DNA of 32,000 nucleotides, taken from assembly GCF_009557235.1 (NCBI RefSeq), contig NZ_CP045650.1, forward strand, positions 1,440,001 to 1,472,000, written 5' to 3'. Origin of the DNA: Acinetobacter wanghuae. Lineage in GTDB: Bacteria > Pseudomonadota > Gammaproteobacteria > Pseudomonadales > Moraxellaceae. The notes below the pieces were generated by a model. That model saw nothing but the letters and a program-made list of their open reading frames with translations, did no database searches and was not told where the DNA came from. The translations under genes and the position numbers were made by a program. This document shows positions 461 through 6,686 of the stretch, piece after piece; positions within the stretch are counted from its first letter, which is position 1, and each line of letters begins with the position of its first letter.

Positions 461-487
461 AAGGGACGCGATGCGTCCCTTTTATTT
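461..487. terminator. Bidirectional intrinsic terminator between convergent genes
   Basis: GGGACGC (463-469) and GCGTCCC (473-479) form a stem around a 3-nt loop. A-rich sequence lies upstream and TTTTATTT downstream. It sits between the MFS stop (437) and the pilU-like stop (486). Confidence 0.75.
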
Positions 488-1679
488 AAGCAGATTCTTG
501 GTTTTCGTCTTCGTTTTCTTCTTTTTTAGGTTCTTCATACATCGTAAAGGCGGTCGCTGCTGCATCTTGCGAAGCATGCCTTCTTTGCCCTTTGAGTTTG
601 ATCTGCAACCTTAATTCATTGGTCGAATCGGCATTGCGTAAGGCTTCTTCATAAGAAATTGCACCTTCGTTATATAAATCAAAGAGTGCCTGATCAAAGG
701 TTTGCATGCCCAATTCACGTGACTTTGACATAATACCTTTTAGCTCATGGAATTCGCCTTTGAGAATTAAATCTGAAATAAGGGGGGTATTCAGCATAAT
801 TTCAATAGCAGCACGACGCCCTTGGCCATCTTCTGTCCGAATTAAACGCTGTGAAATAATCGCTTTCATATTCGATGATAAATCCATCAATAATTGATTA
901 CGGCGTTCCTCTGGGAAAAAGTTAATAATCCGATCAAGAGTTTGATTTGCATTATTTGAGTGTAGCGTTCCTAAACATAAATGGCCCGTTTCAGCAAAAG
1001 CAATTGCATGTTCCATGGTTTCAGTATCGCGAATCTCACCAATCAAGATCACGTCAGGTGCTTGACGTAAGGTGTTTTTCAGTGCGTTATGCCATGAATG
1101 ACAATCGACGCCCACTTCACGATGCGTAATCATCGACTTTTTGTGTTTATGTACGTATTCGACTGGATCTTCAACGGTAATAATATGTCCTGCTGAATTT
1201 TCATTACGGTAGTCGATCATGGCAGCCAGTGAGGTTGATTTACCTGAACCCGTGCCACCGACAACAAGTACTAACCCACGTTTTTCCATAATTACGGATT
1301 TAAGTGACTCTGGAAGTTTAAGTTTTTGAAAATTTGGAATTTCTGCAGTAATGGTTCGAATCACCATGCCTACATTCAACTGTTGTTGAAACACATTCAC
1401 GCGAAAACGCGATACACCGGGAACGGTAATCGCAAAATTACACTCAAGCTCTGTTTCGAATTCTTTACGTTGCCGTTCATTCATTAAACCATAGGCAAAT
1501 AGCTTGGTTTTCTCCGCGGTCAATGTCTGTTGCCCGAAAGGTTTCATCAAACCTTGATGCTTAATACTGGGTGGAAAATCAGCCGTGATAAACAGATCCG
1601 AACCGCCGTATTCAACCACTTTGGTTAGCATATGATGCATAAAGCGTTGTGCTTCTTCTAATAGTTCTGCTGTAAACAT
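486..1679 (-). CDS. pilU: PilT/PilU-family type IV pilus retraction-type ATPase (PilU-like)
   Basis: Walker A GGTGSGKST and Walker B DVILIGEIRD are present, with the His-box region GHLCLGTLHSNNA. The C-terminal NTPLISDLILKGE segment resembles PilU rather than the PilT AIRNLIRE motif. Similarity to P. aeruginosa PilU runs the full length, from memory. Confidence 0.85.
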   Translation of the reverse strand: MFTAELLEEAQRFMHHMLTKVVEYGGSDLFITADFPPSIKHQGLMKPFGQQTLTAEKTKLFAYGLMNERQRKEFETELECNFAITVPGVSRFRVNVFQQQLNVGMVIRTITAEIPNFQKLKLPESLKSVIMEKRGLVLVVGGTGSGKSTSLAAMIDYRNENSAGHIITVEDPVEYVHKHKKSMITHREVGVDCHSWHNALKNTLRQAPDVILIGEIRDTETMEHAIAFAETGHLCLGTLHSNNANQTLDRIINFFPEERRNQLLMDLSSNMKAIISQRLIRTEDGQGRRAAIEIMLNTPLISDLILKGEFHELKGIMSKSRELGMQTFDQALFDLYNEGAISYEEALRNADSTNELRLQIKLKGQRRHASQDAAATAFTMYEEPKKEENEDENQESA

Positions 1680-1880: not shown

Positions 1881-1920
1881 AAAAAGGCTTTCCTCAGCAT
1901 GTCCCCAAGGAAAGCCATTT
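1881..1920 (-). terminator. Intrinsic terminator downstream of the DAHP synthase gene
   Basis: GGCTTTCC (1886-1893) pairs with GGAAAGCC (1909-1916). On the minus strand the hairpin is followed by a U-run (A-run 1881-1885 on plus). Confidence 0.7.
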
Positions 1921-1927
1921 TAACATG

Positions 1928-2977
1928 TTACGCACTACGTTTTAATGCTGTAACACGAAGTAAATCTGCGGTATCGAGCAGTAAAGTTTTAGTTTTTTCC
2001 CAACCTAAACAGCCATCTGTGACAGATTGACCATATGTCATATTGTTTGATATTTTTTGATTGCCATCAACCAAATGACTTTCTAGCATCACACCGCGTA
2101 CATTGCTGTGTGACCGTTCAGCCACAATGCGTGCCAATACTTCTGGCTGCTGCATTGGATCTTTCGCACTATTGCCATGGCTGCAATCAATCACTAATGC
2201 AGGTAATTCCATTTGAGATTTTACCTTGATCTTTTCAATTTCAGCTAAGGCGTAGTTGGGTCCGGTATTTGAACCACGTAAAATTAAATGTGCCTTCGGA
2301 TTACCTGCCGAATTTAAAATACTCGGTAAACCTGATTGGCTCAGACCCATGAATTGATGGGAATGTGAAGCAGATTGAATCGCATCAAGTGCAATTTGAA
2401 TCGAACCATCCGTACCATTTTTGAAGCCAATGCTGTATGGCATATGGCTTGAAATTTCACGGTGAATTTGTGATTCACTGGTACGCGCGCCAATCGCCCC
2501 CCAACTTAATAAATCATCGAAATATGCAGTTGCCATTGGACTTAGAATTTCTGAGGAAATTGGTAAACCCATTTCAATAATTTTTAGGTACAAGGCACGT
2601 GAACGTTCTAGCCCTAATTGCATATCTGAAGAACCATCTAGATTTGGATCGTAAAGGAAACCTTTCCAGCCAACGGTTGTACGCGGTTTTTCAATATATG
2701 CACGCATCACCAATAAGATTTGATCAGATACGTCATGTTGTAATTGTTTTAATTTTTCTGCGTATTCAAGTGCGGATTTTTCATCATGAATGGAGCATGG
2801 ACCTGTAATCACCAACAGGCGATGATCTTTGCCATCTAAAATATCTTGGATGCTTTGTCGTTGATGAGCAATGTGTTGCGCCAATTGCGGAGACAGTGGC
2901 AATTGTGCTTTCAACTGCTCTGGTACAGCTAATGTGATTTCTGTTTGATTTTGTTTTGAAGTATTTACAGTGTTCAT
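1928..2977 (-). CDS. 3-deoxy-7-phosphoheptulonate (DAHP) synthase, class I, divergent paralog
   Basis: GPCSIHD, EKPRTTVGWKG, GARTSESQIHRE, GFKNGTDG and CSHGNS motifs are present. An AGGA-type RBS lies upstream of the ATG at 2977. It is clearly more divergent from E. coli AroF/G/H than the copy at 28400. Confidence 0.9.
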   Translation of the reverse strand: MNTVNTSKQNQTEITLAVPEQLKAQLPLSPQLAQHIAHQRQSIQDILDGKDHRLLVITGPCSIHDEKSALEYAEKLKQLQHDVSDQILLVMRAYIEKPRTTVGWKGFLYDPNLDGSSDMQLGLERSRALYLKIIEMGLPISSEILSPMATAYFDDLLSWGAIGARTSESQIHREISSHMPYSIGFKNGTDGSIQIALDAIQSASHSHQFMGLSQSGLPSILNSAGNPKAHLILRGSNTGPNYALAEIEKIKVKSQMELPALVIDCSHGNSAKDPMQQPEVLARIVAERSHSNVRGVMLESHLVDGNQKISNNMTYGQSVTDGCLGWEKTKTLLLDTADLLRVTALKRSA

Positions 2978-3016
2978 GTCTTTCTTTCCTTGGGACTGAT
3001 CATACAGTCCATACTT

Positions 3017-3121
3017 TTATTTGAGCGTTATGGGTCTTTGTAGCTGCATTGCGAGGTTCATCACCTTGTTAAAGTAAGACCAATAAAAGTTGCTAAAATA
3101 AAAGTAGTTAAAAGTTGTCAT
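3017..3121 (-). CDS. Candidate second leader peptide, 34 aa, aromatic-rich (MTTFNYFYFSNFYWSYFNKVMNLAMQLQRPITLK)
   Basis: The ATG at 3121-3119 is preceded by GGAG with a 6-nt spacer. Ten of residues 4-17 are Phe, Tyr or Trp. The stop lies 40 nt upstream of the DAHP synthase ATG. A GGACUG/CAGUCC hairpin (3010-2993) sits just 5' of the DAHP synthase RBS. Confidence 0.45.
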   Translation of the reverse strand: MTTFNYFYFSNFYWSYFNKVMNLAMQLQRPITLK

Positions 3122-3157
3122 GGCTGTCTCCAAAAAATATTTATAAATCACATGCAT

Positions 3158-3188
3158 AAAAAAACCTGACCAGGGTTGCCGATCAGGT
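3158..3188 (-). terminator. Attenuator terminator (8-bp stem plus U-tract) in the DAHP synthase leader
   Basis: On the minus strand, ACCUGAUC (3188-3181) pairs with GGUCAGGU (3171-3164), including one G.U pair, around a 9-nt loop. Six more U residues follow the stem (3163-3158). Confidence 0.65.
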
Positions 3189-3234
3189 ATTAACTTGGTG
3201 GGCAACCTTTTCTCTGCCCGAACACGTTCAGGCA
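3173..3234 (-). promoter_or_regulatory. Alternative leader RNA helices (anti-antiterminator and antiterminator) of the attenuator
   Basis: Minus-strand helices: UGCCUGAA/UUCGGGCA (3234-3215); GGGCA/UGCCC (3219-3215 with 3204-3200); GGUUGCC/GGCAACC (3207-3201 with 3180-3174). The last is mutually exclusive with the terminator: its 3' arm lies in the terminator loop, and the terminator 5' arm lies in its loop. Confidence 0.55.
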
Positions 3235-3235
3235 A

Positions 3236-3289
3236 CTATCTAAATTGCCAAAAATAATACGCGTTAGTTTGAAGTGATTGCTTTAACAT
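3236..3289 (-). CDS. Candidate attenuation leader peptide, 17 aa (MLKQSLQTNAYYFWQFR)
   Basis: The ORF runs from ATG 3289-3287 to TAG 3238-3236. It carries UAU UAU UUU UGG CAA UUU at 3259-3242. The stop codon directly abuts the first leader helix. Caveat: no convincing Shine-Dalgarno upstream. Confidence 0.55.
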   Translation of the reverse strand: MLKQSLQTNAYYFWQFR

Positions 3290-3322
3290 GTGAATTTGTT
3301 CAAATGGTTATCTCTAAAAAAT

Positions 3323-3351
3323 AAAATACGCTGTATTCGCAGCTTTGACAA
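3323..3351 (-). promoter_or_regulatory. Candidate sigma70 promoter for the leader and DAHP synthase transcript
   Basis: Minus strand: TTGTCA (3351-3346), a 17-nt spacer, then TATTTT (3328-3323). The predicted start is near 3316, about 27 nt upstream of the leader ATG. Such matches are easy to find in AT-rich DNA. Confidence 0.3.
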
Positions 3352-4041
3352 TAGTTTTATACAAAATATAAAACTATGAGTGATACAACTTTGCTTTATC
3401 AATGCTCATGACTTCTACTTAAGCTCATTCTGCTGCCGTATTCCATAACAACATCGATCTATTCGGCATCATGATTTCTAACAACTCAACTCTAAGTTTT
3501 TTTGGGCGAATTCGAGACTCATTTGCTGTTTAAATTTTTCTAAACAAAAAAGATGAGGCGATTTTAAACCTTTCTAAATTTAAGGTTTAACGCATATATT
3601 GCCAAACACAGCTGCTGATCAGAATTTTTACCGGATATTAAATGAATGAAATTTATCCATTTTTAGATAAATATGCTAAAAAATAAATATTTTACAAAAA
3701 GTTACAATCTATGTTTGTGTCATTTAAGTCAACACTAAAAACATTATTTTATAAATATCATTACTTTATATTATGATTAAAAGAACAAACCCACATAATT
3801 ACGCTATTCGTAATCCATTTATGTATTGAATAAAAATAAAGCCTCAGTATGATGAAAAAATAACTTGATCATACTTTCTTAGATTTCATATCAAGAAAGA
3901 ACTAAATGAATCATAAAAGTATTGGCAGATGGATCTGTCATCAAAAATGAAGATCTTTTTTAAACATAGATTCATCTGTTGAACTGTGAAATTGTTTAAA
4001 AATAGGCAATAGGATTGCTTAAAAAATAATGAGGATGTTGT

Positions 4042-5103
4042 ATGAATAAGCTAGCAAACCCTTTAGAGCTCTGTGGATTTGAATTTATCGAATTCGTGTC
4101 TCAAGATGGAGAACTAGATGCAATTTTTCAAACCATTGGTTTTAGTAAAGTCGCAAAACATAAATCTAAAAATGTGTATTTATGGCGCCAAGGTAATATC
4201 AATATCATTCTCAATTATCAGCCTGAATCTTATGCTGCGTTCTTCTTTAAAGAACATGGTCCTTCAGCATGTGCAATGGGTTTTAGAACCAAAGATGCAG
4301 CAAAAGCGTTTAATAAAGCCGTCGAATTTGGTGCAGAACCAATGTATTCGAAAATTGGCCCAATGGAACTGAATATCCCAGCCATTAAAGGGATTGGTGG
4401 CTCACCGATTTTCTTAGTCGATCGTGATATTTATCAAAGTGATTTTATTTTCTTTGATGATGTAGAACTCAATCCTGTCGGTGCGGGTTTAAAAGAAATC
4501 GATCATTTGACCCATAATGTCTATAAAGGTCGTATGCAATATTGGTCAGATTTCTATGAAAAAATCTTTAACTTCCAAGAAATTCGTTATTTCGATATTA
4601 AAGGTGAATATACGGGTTTAACCTCAAAAGCCTTAACTGCCCCGGATGGTAAAATTCGTATTCCATTGAATGAAGATTCCGACAAAGGAAATGGGCAAAT
4701 TGCAGAATTTCTCAATGAGTTTAATGGCGAAGGGATTCAGCACATTGCTTTTATTACCGATGATTTGATTGGCACATGGGATAAGTTAAAGGCTTTAGGT
4801 GCGCAATTTATGACGCCGCCGCCAAGCACCTATTATGATATGTTGCCTGAGCGTTTACCGAATCACGGTGAGCCGACAGAAGAATTGCAAAAACGTGGCA
4901 TTTTACTTGATGGCAATACCGAAGGCGAAGAAAAGCGTCTGCTGTTACAGATTTTCTCTCAAAATATGCTCGGTCCAGTATTCTTCGAGTTTATTCAACG
5001 TAAAGATGATGATGGTTTTGGTGAAGGTAACTTTAAAGCGCTGTTTGAATCAATTGAGCGCGATCAAATCAAACGTGGCGTACTTGATATTTCCAACGCT
5101 TAA
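4042..5103 (+). CDS. hppD: 4-hydroxyphenylpyruvate dioxygenase
   Basis: The length is about 350 aa with two VOC/glyoxalase-like halves. Motifs: EFIEF N-terminus, [15 protein letters not shown], and FFEFIQR...[15 protein letters not shown] at the C-terminus. An RBS GAGGA lies upstream. Confidence 0.9.
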
Positions 5104-5273: not shown

Positions 5274-6686
5274 ATGATGATAAAAATGCAGCAGATAGAA
5301 CAAGGAAACCTGAAAAAAGGTTTAAGTAATCGACATATTCAATTGATTGCCCTCGGTGGTTCAATCGGTACTGGACTCTTTCTCGGTATTGCACAGACCA
5401 TTAAATTGGCAGGTCCGTCGGTTATTTTAGGTTATGCCATTGCCGGTTTAATTGCTTTTTTAATGATGCGCCAACTCGGTGAAATGATTGTTGAAGAACC
5501 TGTAAGTGGTTCATTTAGCCATTTTGCTTATAAATACTGGGGCAAATTTGCCGGTTTTATGTCGGGATGGAACTATTGGGTCTTAAACATTTTAGTATGT
5601 ATGGCAGAACTCAGTGCTATCGGACTTTATATTCACTATTGGTGGCCTGAAATCCCGACATGGGTTTCTGCACTCGGCTTCTTTATTTTCATTAATGTGA
5701 TTAATTTACTTCACGTTAAATTATTTGGTGAAATGGAATTTTGGCTCGCGATTATTAAAGTTGTGGCAATTATTGCCATGATTGCCTTTGGTAGTTATTT
5801 ATTGGCCAGTGGTAGCGGTGGCACACAGTCAAGTCTACAAAACCTATGGGAGTTAGGTGGCTTCTTCCCGAATGGTGTGATGGGTTTGGTCATGGCAATG
5901 GCGATGATCATGTTTGCCTTTGGCGGTATTGAACTAGTCGGCATTGCAGCTGCGGAAACTGAAAACCCGCAAAAAACTTTACCGAAAGCAGTGAACCAAA
6001 TTGTATACCGCGTTCTACTCTTCTATATCTTAAGTTTAGTGATTATTTTGTCGCTTTATCCATGGAACCAAATGGCACAAGGTGGTAGTCCTTTTGTCAT
6101 GATCTTTGATTCTTTGGGCAGTCAAACCGTTGCGACCATTTTAAACTTTGTGGTACTGACGGCTGCGGTCTCTGTATATAACAGTACGAATTATTGTACC
6201 AGTCGCATGCTGCTCGGCTTGGCACAACAAGGCAATGCACCGAAATTTTTAAGTAAAATTAATCTGCGTGGTATTCCAGTGAATGCCGTAATGGTATCGG
6301 CATTCTTTACTTTAATTTGTGTGTTAATCAATTACTTATTTCCAGAAAAAGCCTTTAGCTTACTGATGATGCTGGTTGTTGCCGCGATTGTGATTAATTG
6401 GGTCGTCATTTCTTATACCCATTTAAAGTTTAAAAAACATATGCATGCAACGCAGACCCCAACGCTATTTCCAAGTATTGCCTATCCGTTTAGTAACTAC
6501 CTCTGCATTATTTTTATGTTTGGCATTTTAGTCATTATGAGCCAAACACCAGGTATGCGCGTTGCGGTGATGATGCTTCCGATCTGGATTTCTATTTTAA
6601 CGATTGCTTATTTTTTCAAAAATCGCAAAATAACGAACACCAAATTGGCATTAAAAGATAAGATACAATCAGTTCCAAAGGCTTGA
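5274..6686 (+). CDS. aroP: Aromatic amino acid:H+ symporter (APC family, AroP-like)
   Basis: Similarity to E. coli AroP is near-colinear, from memory (NRHIQLIALGGSIGTGLFLG, GEMIVEEPVSGSFSHFAYKYWG, FGEMEFW). It has 12 hydrophobic segments. The start could be any of the ATGs at 5274, 5277 or 5286. Confidence 0.88.
   Translation: MMIKMQQIEQGNLKKGLSNRHIQLIALGGSIGTGLFLGIAQTIKLAGPSVILGYAIAGLIAFLMMRQLGEMIVEEPVSGSFSHFAYKYWGKFAGFMSGWNYWVLNILVCMAELSAIGLYIHYWWPEIPTWVSALGFFIFINVINLLHVKLFGEMEFWLAIIKVVAIIAMIAFGSYLLASGSGGTQSSLQNLWELGGFFPNGVMGLVMAMAMIMFAFGGIELVGIAAAETENPQKTLPKAVNQIVYRVLLFYILSLVIILSLYPWNQMAQGGSPFVMIFDSLGSQTVATILNFVVLTAAVSVYNSTNYCTSRMLLGLAQQGNAPKFLSKINLRGIPVNAVMVSAFFTLICVLINYLFPEKAFSLLMMLVVAAIVINWVVISYTHLKFKKHMHATQTPTLFPSIAYPFSNYLCIIFMFGILVIMSQTPGMRVAVMMLPIWISILTIAYFFKNRKITNTKLALKDKIQSVPKA

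Follow-up and report, generated by a model that had tools for sequence, protein, structure and literature searches.

Classical attenuators such as trpL, pheL and aroR consist of a short leader open reading frame (ORF) that has its own ribosome-binding site, carries codons for the end products of the pathway and precedes a biosynthetic gene. To our knowledge, nearly all described cases of leader-peptide attenuation involve one leader ORF and one terminator, and the cases of translational attenuation known to us come mostly from antibiotic resistance genes. [quoted passage not shown] Full-text literature searches found no description of a leader of the Acinetobacter DAHP synthase gene. Here, this leader was analyzed in a stretch of 32,000 nucleotides from Acinetobacter wanghuae (contig NZ_CP045650.1, positions 1,440,001 to 1,472,000), referred to as the window, and all coordinates are positions of the window unless another locus is named. 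Besides a leader ORF with an attenuator (leader 1), the minus strand carries a second ORF, ORF2 (3017..3121), between the attenuator terminator and the synthase gene. ORF2 has the ribosome-binding site, the end-product codons and the biosynthetic gene downstream that characterize the classical leaders. Judged by its conservation, ORF2 is a real and selectively maintained coding frame. This frame lies behind a genuine attenuator terminator, so that two aromatic-rich leader ORFs stand in tandem before the gene. The preliminary description of this DNA had suggested such an arrangement, and the conserved frame together with the intact first attenuator bears it out.

ORF2 comprises 34 codons plus UAA and has the translation MTTFNYFYFSNFYWSYFNKVMNLAMQLQRPITLK. 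It is preceded by the Shine-Dalgarno sequence GGAG (3128..3131, minus strand) with a U-rich tract before it. The aromatic codon cluster, which is the presumed stall zone, covers codons 4-17 (FNYFYFSNFYWSYF; 3071..3112, minus strand) and encodes five Phe, four Tyr and one Trp among 14 residues. Among 262 small ORFs of the window (20-80 amino acids, six frames) this was the densest aromatic stretch of 14 residues, and the next densest stretches contained nine and then six aromatic residues. The GGAG-N6-ATG start at 3121, the 34 codons and the aromatic counts of the preliminary description were confirmed in the sequence, whereas the distance to the synthase gene, given there as 40 nt, is 39 nt between the stop codon and the ATG at 2977. 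A terminator scan of the minus strand detected no terminator-like site from ORF2 to the synthase gene (3017 to 2977), in agreement with the earlier remark that no U-tract terminator follows ORF2; minus-strand terminators were found solely at 3188..3164, upstream of ORF2, and at 1916..1886, after the synthase gene. Longer versions of ORF2 starting at the in-frame ATG 3157 or TTG 3235, which appear as 46- and 72-amino-acid ORFs in mechanical lists, were rejected because no ribosome-binding site precedes these starts and relatives do not keep the upstream frame. The in-frame ATG at 3157 lies inside the T-tract of the terminator.

For the comparison within the genus, a species-level genome collection was scanned with the synthase, and the best 80 of 180 related genome loci were used. 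These 80 Acinetobacter loci show synthase protein identities of 73-82%, and the sample is without A. baumannii, A. baylyi and other Moraxellaceae. A further 27 loci were found in metagenomes via a profile of the ORF2 peptide alone. ORF2 was present in frame at all 107 related loci, always located after the terminator and before the synthase gene, and the architecture and the downstream gene were the same at each of the 27 metagenome loci. The window and the 80 genome loci together contained 81 ORF2 copies, corresponding to 58 distinct nucleotide versions with the consensus M.T.NYSYFSN.YWFYFSQ.MT...QSIRPITLK. Frame 0 was open in all 58 versions, and each of the five other frames contained stops in all 58. 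The ORF2 lengths were solely 81, 96, 102, 105 and 108 nt, that is multiples of three, and the flanking spacers were of any length (27-47 nt upstream and 33-45 nt downstream). In 56 of the 58 versions GGAG, or GGAA in three of them, was located 6-8 nt before the ATG. A GTG stands at the usual place of the ATG, at the normal distance from GGAG, in Acinetobacter ursingii (locus L073, ~2870..2880 of that locus; GGAGAUGUGCC GUG UAU AAC UUG AUG...), and ORF2 of this locus probably starts at this GTG and not at the internal ATG that was extracted.

The substitution pattern is that of a coding sequence. The pooled ratio of nonsynonymous to synonymous differences per site (pN/pS) was 0.43 for ORF2 and 0.26 for its aromatic core, compared with 0.18 for the synthase; the ORF2 nucleotides gave 1.54 and 0.94 when read in the two remaining sense-strand frames. 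Column entropies of ORF2 summed by codon position were 15.9, 18.5 and 25.2, so third positions vary most. Synonymous variation was found at Tyr (UAU 33, UAC 25), Gln, Asn, Ser, Leu and Thr codons, and for one conserved Thr all four codons occurred among the versions. Within the aromatic cluster the Y, F, Y, W, Y and F positions of the core YF..YW.YF were invariant or nearly so. With Phe, Tyr and Trp, the conserved aromatic residues comprise all three pathway end products, the same three as in leader 1. This purifying selection suggests that ORF2 is translated in vivo. The ORF is almost never annotated: a search of its profile against 5.8 billion catalogued proteins returned four matches. There was no Pfam or NCBIfam match to ORF2 at E <= 10, and Rfam 15 gave only chance-level hits (E >= 0.25) in 2700..4100.

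The element upstream of ORF2 is an ordinary attenuator. Leader ORF 1 (MLKQSLQTNAYYFWQFR plus stop; 3236..3289, minus strand) contains the regulatory run Y-Y-F-W-Q-F and is kept as MLKQP.ISNAYYYFWQFR at every locus with upstream DNA long enough, which excludes only L060, where the upstream sequence is incomplete and does not extend to leader 1. It is followed by alternative hairpins and a terminator (3157..3231, minus strand; terminator scan and RNAalifold). In the antiterminator GGUUGCC (3207..3201) pairs with GGCAACC (3180..3174), whereas the intrinsic terminator has a stem at 3188..3164 and a T7 tract to 3157, so that antiterminator and terminator pairing are mutually exclusive as in a classical attenuator. 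RNAalifold on 31 species gave a consensus of -31.9 kcal/mol with all stems conserved. The conserved stems and the terminator thus mark the first element as a classical attenuator, although leader 1 matched no Rfam family even at E <= 10 and no Pfam or NCBIfam family at E <= 10. A variable spacer of 27-47 nt separates its terminator from GGAG and ORF2. Leader 1 (UAU UUU UGG CAA UUU AGA UAA; 3236..3262) and ORF2 (3068..3094) share the pattern ...UGG...UUUAG.{1,2}AA, and the ORF2 counterpart in most species reads UUU UAU UGG UUU UAC UUU AGU CAA. From the impression given by the alignments, ORF2 might have originated by duplication of leader 1.

Conservation in ORF2 goes beyond the peptide. The synonymous term (pS) was 0.415 for ORF2 and 0.68 for the synthase, indicating extra constraint on synonymous sites. 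Phe was nearly always encoded by UUU and one Tyr always by UAU, compared with 29% UUC and 19% UAC in the genome (codon shares are synonymous usage in the genome of the window). The ORF ends in a tail of rare codons, AGA CCC AUA ACG CUC AAA UAA (3017..3037, minus strand), in which the codon shares are 4% for AGA, 11% for CCC, 4% for AUA, 18% for ACG and 10% for CUC; codon counts showed each tail codon to be identical in 45-56 of the 58 versions. The best complement of the tail across the leader was the linker CUGAACGCGUUCGGGCA of the first attenuator (3231..3215), with a mean duplex energy of about -11 kcal/mol. Shuffles of single sequences matched this duplex 3-14% of the time, and cognate pairs differed from non-cognate pairs with p = 0.017, so that the tail/linker pairing is marginally above chance. 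The region 3017..3040 is complementary to the linker and loop CUGAACGUGUUCGGGCA (3215..3231), about 200 nt upstream, and at locus L056 both sides of the duplex are changed and pairing is restored in a shifted register.

Six nucleotides after the ORF2 stop and one nucleotide before the AAGGA of the synthase lies the hairpin P2 (GGACUG-loop-CAGUCC; 2993..3010, minus strand). The preliminary description had proposed this hairpin, and it was substantiated by the conservation of both arms across the 58 sequences. P2 folds with -9.1 kcal/mol (z = -3.1) and is paired in 98.5% of cells of the 58 sequences; its GGACU and AGUCC arms are 7-15 nt apart and the loop sequence is free to vary. In the window and in all relatives P2 is followed by CAAGGAAAG and no U-tract. 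The possibility that P2 is a dispersed repeat was rejected, as there is one copy per locus. Across the compared sequences, conservation comprises the ORF2 frame, its ribosome-binding site, the aromatic codons, the tail and the hairpin.

No part of ORF2 is better conserved than the aromatic codons, and these correspond to the pathway end products. ORF2 is therefore most likely a reporter of how much charged Phe-, Tyr- and Trp-tRNA is available, in the same way as leader 1. Since no terminator follows ORF2, its signal must be transmitted via refolding of the RNA or via access of Rho or nucleases. We give about an even chance to the reading that ORF2 is a stalling sensor of aromatic amino acid shortage with a translational output. 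According to this model, ORF2 would be present only on transcripts that escaped the first terminator. When charged Phe-, Tyr- or Trp-tRNA is scarce, a ribosome would stall in codons 4-17 and cover the U-rich aromatic segment, which would otherwise be paired with downstream RNA. In most Acinetobacter the predicted partner is the start region of the synthase (AGACCAAUGA or UUAAAGUCAUGAAUA), so that this start would stay open and the enzyme would be translated; continued translation may also keep Rho or nucleases off the mRNA. With an ample supply of the amino acids, the ribosome would reach the stop codon, the aromatic segment would refold and leaky read-through transcripts would be translated poorly. 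The outcome would be a two-stage control of one gene, first transcriptional and then translational. Somewhat more tentative is the broader claim that the main DAHP synthase is under a two-stage, purely ribosome-based sensor, composed of a terminator attenuator and then a terminator-less aromatic leader. Its second stage could gate the initiation of enzyme translation, or it could act via the conserved peptide and the rare-codon tail as a nascent-chain sensor of aromatic amino acids.

Folding predictions provide part of the basis for this model. Codons 12-15 (UUAUUGGUUU) pair with AGACCAAUGA, which holds the synthase AUG, with a mean probability of ~0.47 over the 58 sequences. For the duplex of codons 5-20 with the start region, the mean energy was -13.8 kcal/mol, compared with -11.2 kcal/mol for synonymous recodings and -8.8 kcal/mol for shuffles, and 35 of the 58 sequences beat 95% of their shuffles. 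Cognate pairs reached -13.85 kcal/mol and non-cognate pairs -12.95 kcal/mol (permutation p < 5e-5, relatedness ignored), and the same comparison on 35 distinct start regions gave p = 0.002, again with relatedness ignored. With a footprint mask on codons 9-17, opening the start became cheaper by a mean of 2-3 kcal/mol, and by 5-6 kcal/mol in several species, whereas a mask on codons 27-31 made it costlier by 1.3-1.8 kcal/mol. When the segment from the ORF2 stop to the gene was folded alone, both the Shine-Dalgarno sequence and the AUG of the synthase were unpaired; as the local fold leaves the start free, any repression must come from ORF2. In the window, the Trp-codon segment forms GGUCUU:AAGACC within the predicted minimum-energy fold. 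The preliminary description had named GGUCUU (3081..3076), AAGACC (3038..3033) and GGACUG/CAGUCC (3010..2993) as possible structural elements. All of them are present, and the GGUCUU:AAGACC pairing proposed there holds up in the minimum-energy fold of the window and is significant in its clade.

Several observations weigh against the stalling model. No long-range helix is conserved throughout the genus. RNAalifold predicted only P2, and three helices examined explicitly were 84-91% paired but sequence-invariant and essentially without compensatory changes. With fold z-scores averaging only -1.2 in addition, a single conserved RNA switch was rejected. The pairing partners shift between clades: in the lwoffii group a 14-bp helix between codons 6-10 and UUAAAGUCAUGAAUA takes the place of the pairing of codons 12-15 with AGACCAAUGA, and the Trp-codon segment has the synthase start as its partner in the majority clade but the ORF2 tail in the clade of the window. 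In the window itself the complementarity to the start is at chance level, being equalled by 23% of recodings and 44% of shuffles, and its cognate start ranks 40th of 58. U-rich codons readily pair with an A/G-rich ribosome-binding site, and the permutation tests of cognate against non-cognate pairs do not take the relatedness of the sequences into account. The gains from masking the aromatic codons are modest and vary with the chosen boundaries. Moreover, no mask in the scan had a larger effect than one at the ORF2 stop, which lowered the opening cost by a mean of 4.3 kcal/mol. By melting P2, a ribosome at the stop opens the start to the same extent as a stalled ribosome. Neither the conserved rare-codon tail nor the conservation of P2 at the sequence level is explained by the stalling model. 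Translation of ORF2 in vivo, stalling, and the link from stalling to the synthase are steps that we infer. A regulatory role of ORF2 is likely, and because the pairing depends on the clade and is weak in the window, its mechanism is likewise inferred. The observation made in the preliminary description was confirmed and its interpretation is partly supported.

That a ribosome at the stop position also opens the start would fit a model of translational coupling. In this model, ORF2 would be a constitutive helper: ribosomes that end ORF2 would melt P2 and then pass to the synthase start or reinitiate there, and translation of ORF2 might also keep the long leader shielded from Rho and nucleases once the first ribosome has left. 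The geometry is suitable, as the ORF2 stop is 33-45 nt from the synthase AUG and P2 begins ~6 nt past the stop, within reach of a terminating ribosome. The large effect of the stop mask and the conserved strong GGAG site also fit, and the rare-codon tail would lengthen occupancy near the stop. Nevertheless, coupling seems unlikely to us, since it leaves the Phe, Tyr and Trp codons, the most conserved part of ORF2, unaccounted for, and since it would cut synthase output during stalling under aromatic shortage and thereby oppose the first attenuator. In addition, with P2 formed the Shine-Dalgarno sequence and the AUG are already unpaired. The features of the peptide itself could alternatively point to an arrest peptide, whose nascent chain would respond to free aromatic amino acids with a stall close to the end of ORF2. 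Inside the ribosome, Trp is sensed in this manner by TnaC and ornithine by SpeFL. Conserved non-aromatic residues of ORF2 (S8, S11, N12, S19, Q20, M22 and T23), the [RS]-P-I-T-L-K end with a Pro present in 57 of 58 versions, and the conserved run of rare codons before the stop would be in accordance with such a function. However, the Trp-Pro spacing varies between 13 and 16 residues (16 in the 34-codon forms and 13 in the 31-codon forms), four more codons stand between the Pro and the stop, and the peptide has no similarity to curated families (Pfam, NCBIfam). As for the conservation outside the aromatic residues, much of it concerns the nucleotides, identical codons being retained with a pS below that of the synthase, and the known sensors of the TnaC and SpeFL kind induce catabolic genes. 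Taken together, these points make an arrest peptide distinctly improbable.

The absence of an intrinsic terminator after ORF2 could also be reconciled with Rho-dependent polarity, whereby stalling in ORF2 would uncouple translation from transcription and Rho would terminate before or within the synthase gene. The RNA of ORF2 is G-poor and its tail relatively C-rich, which would fit this reading. Such polarity would, however, act in the wrong direction, because starvation would shut off the gene that the first attenuator has just turned on, and merely ~40 nt lie between ORF2 and the synthase start; we therefore regard it as very improbable as the primary mechanism. As an amplifier downstream of start masking, Rho would be compatible with the stalling model (PMC12121999). 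We assign an equally low probability to a free-standing small protein that acts in trans and just shares the transcript. The conserved sequence would fit, and leader peptides with functions in trans are known, for example peTrpL (PMC7298713). Nonetheless, ORF2 occurs in one context only at all 107 loci, including the 27 that were found by the peptide motif alone, and the peptide has neither a hydrophobic nor another recognisable domain, no family match and almost no counterpart among the catalogued proteins. The least probable reading, to which we attach hardly any weight, is that the frame is incidental. The conserved feature would then be a T-rich stretch of DNA or RNA (for instance a site bound by a protein, bent DNA or the TAAAAGT repeats) that can by chance be read as Phe and Tyr codons. 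This alternative had been raised in the preliminary description on account of three (A/T)TAAAAGT copies on the plus strand, which are indeed present in the window, and the extra constraint on synonymous sites would also agree with it. On the coding strand of the window ACUUUUA occurs three times in ORF2, whereas relatives keep one copy (AAC UUU UAU), the other two positions reading ACAUUUAAC and UAUUCAUAU in their consensus. Thus, relatives keep the frame and the aromatic codons and do not have the three-repeat pattern, which is the opposite of the outcome that the preliminary description had named as refuting; as only a single ACUUUUAU copy is conserved, the motif alternative was rejected. 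By this comparison, the three repeats are a peculiarity of this species. Furthermore, the frame, start, Shine-Dalgarno sequence and stop are all kept, the other frames are closed, insertions and deletions come in multiples of three and third positions vary most.

The leader is arranged in the order promoter-like site, leader ORF 1, terminator, spacer, GGAG, ORF2, 6-nt gap, P2, AAGGA and synthase AUG. The downstream gene (1928..2977, minus strand) encodes a class I DAHP synthase of the AroF/G/H type with 349 amino acids (NCBIfam TIGR00034, 413 bits; PRK12755, 476 bits), which is 100% identical to an Acinetobacter wanghuae protein. Its translation initiation region (2975..2991, minus strand), read from the sequence, consists of the Shine-Dalgarno sequence AAGGA (2991..2987), the spacer AAGAAAGAC and the AUG, the ATG being at 2977. 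A consensus scan detected a promoter-like site, TTGTCA-17 nt-TATTTT (3323..3351, minus strand), which presumably serves as the promoter of the leader transcript; TTGTCAA is found at the matching relative position in many relatives, as seen in the printed sequence contexts. Divergent from the synthase leader, the plus strand carries a gene for 4-hydroxyphenylpyruvate dioxygenase (4042..5103) and a gene for an AroP-like aromatic amino acid permease (5274..6686), so that synthesis, uptake and breakdown of aromatic amino acids adjoin here. Elsewhere in the window, a Phe-rich ORF of 47 amino acids (MRPFYLSRFLVFVFVFFFFRFF...; 471..614, plus strand) is antisense to the 3' end of a gene for a PilT/PilU-type ATPase and is probably a by-product of a Lys/Glu-rich tail coded on the opposite strand.

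The comparison with described systems shows in which respects ORF2 departs from each of them. Leaders of the trpL and pheL type have a terminator with a U-tract and competing antiterminator and terminator structures, whereas ORF2 has neither; being without a terminator, it cannot have intrinsic termination as its output. With 31-35 codons it is also twice as long as leader 1 and, unlike a classical leader, lies downstream of a complete attenuator. TnaC resembles ORF2 in being a conserved leader peptide with a Trp and a Pro near the C-terminus and in having no intrinsic terminator after it. However, the TnaC type has a fixed Trp-Pro spacing and arrests at the stop, whereas in ORF2 the spacing varies, the Pro is off the stop and the regulated gene is biosynthetic.

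The proposed mechanism resembles translational attenuation as in the ermC and cat leaders and in toiL of Escherichia coli topAI, where a ribosome stalled on an upstream ORF (uORF) is proposed to remodel the pairing of the downstream ribosome-binding site. In the case of toiL, the stalled ribosome is proposed to relieve translational repression, and Rho termination is a possible secondary effect (PMC12121999); mgtQ is another uORF that opens a downstream ribosome-binding site (PMC8092293). The stalling cue differs, being antibiotics for ermC, cat and toiL and, as proposed here, amino acid supply for ORF2. Unlike in the sensory-uORF model, the masking helix of ORF2 varies across the genus and is weak in the window. 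If ORF2 does gate translation, it would add an amino-acid-responsive case to translational attenuation, and two serial ribosome sensors could sharpen the control of the entry step of aromatic synthesis.

At this locus, a whole genus keeps a second, longer and unannotated aromatic leader ORF behind the terminator, a finding of relevance to how small ORFs are annotated and to shikimate pathway engineering in Acinetobacter hosts. The leader of Salmonella mgtCBR likewise contains two short ORFs (mgtM and mgtP). There, one ORF is rich in codons for a single amino acid and each ORF influences downstream expression, an arrangement that has been called a singular example (PMC3641672). The two mgtCBR ORFs each have a signal of their own, ATP and proline, and exert their effects on transcription, whereas the two ORFs described here carry the same three aromatic amino acids. 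If the two-stage sensor is true, it would represent a new serial wiring of leader peptides for an amino acid pathway in Gammaproteobacteria.

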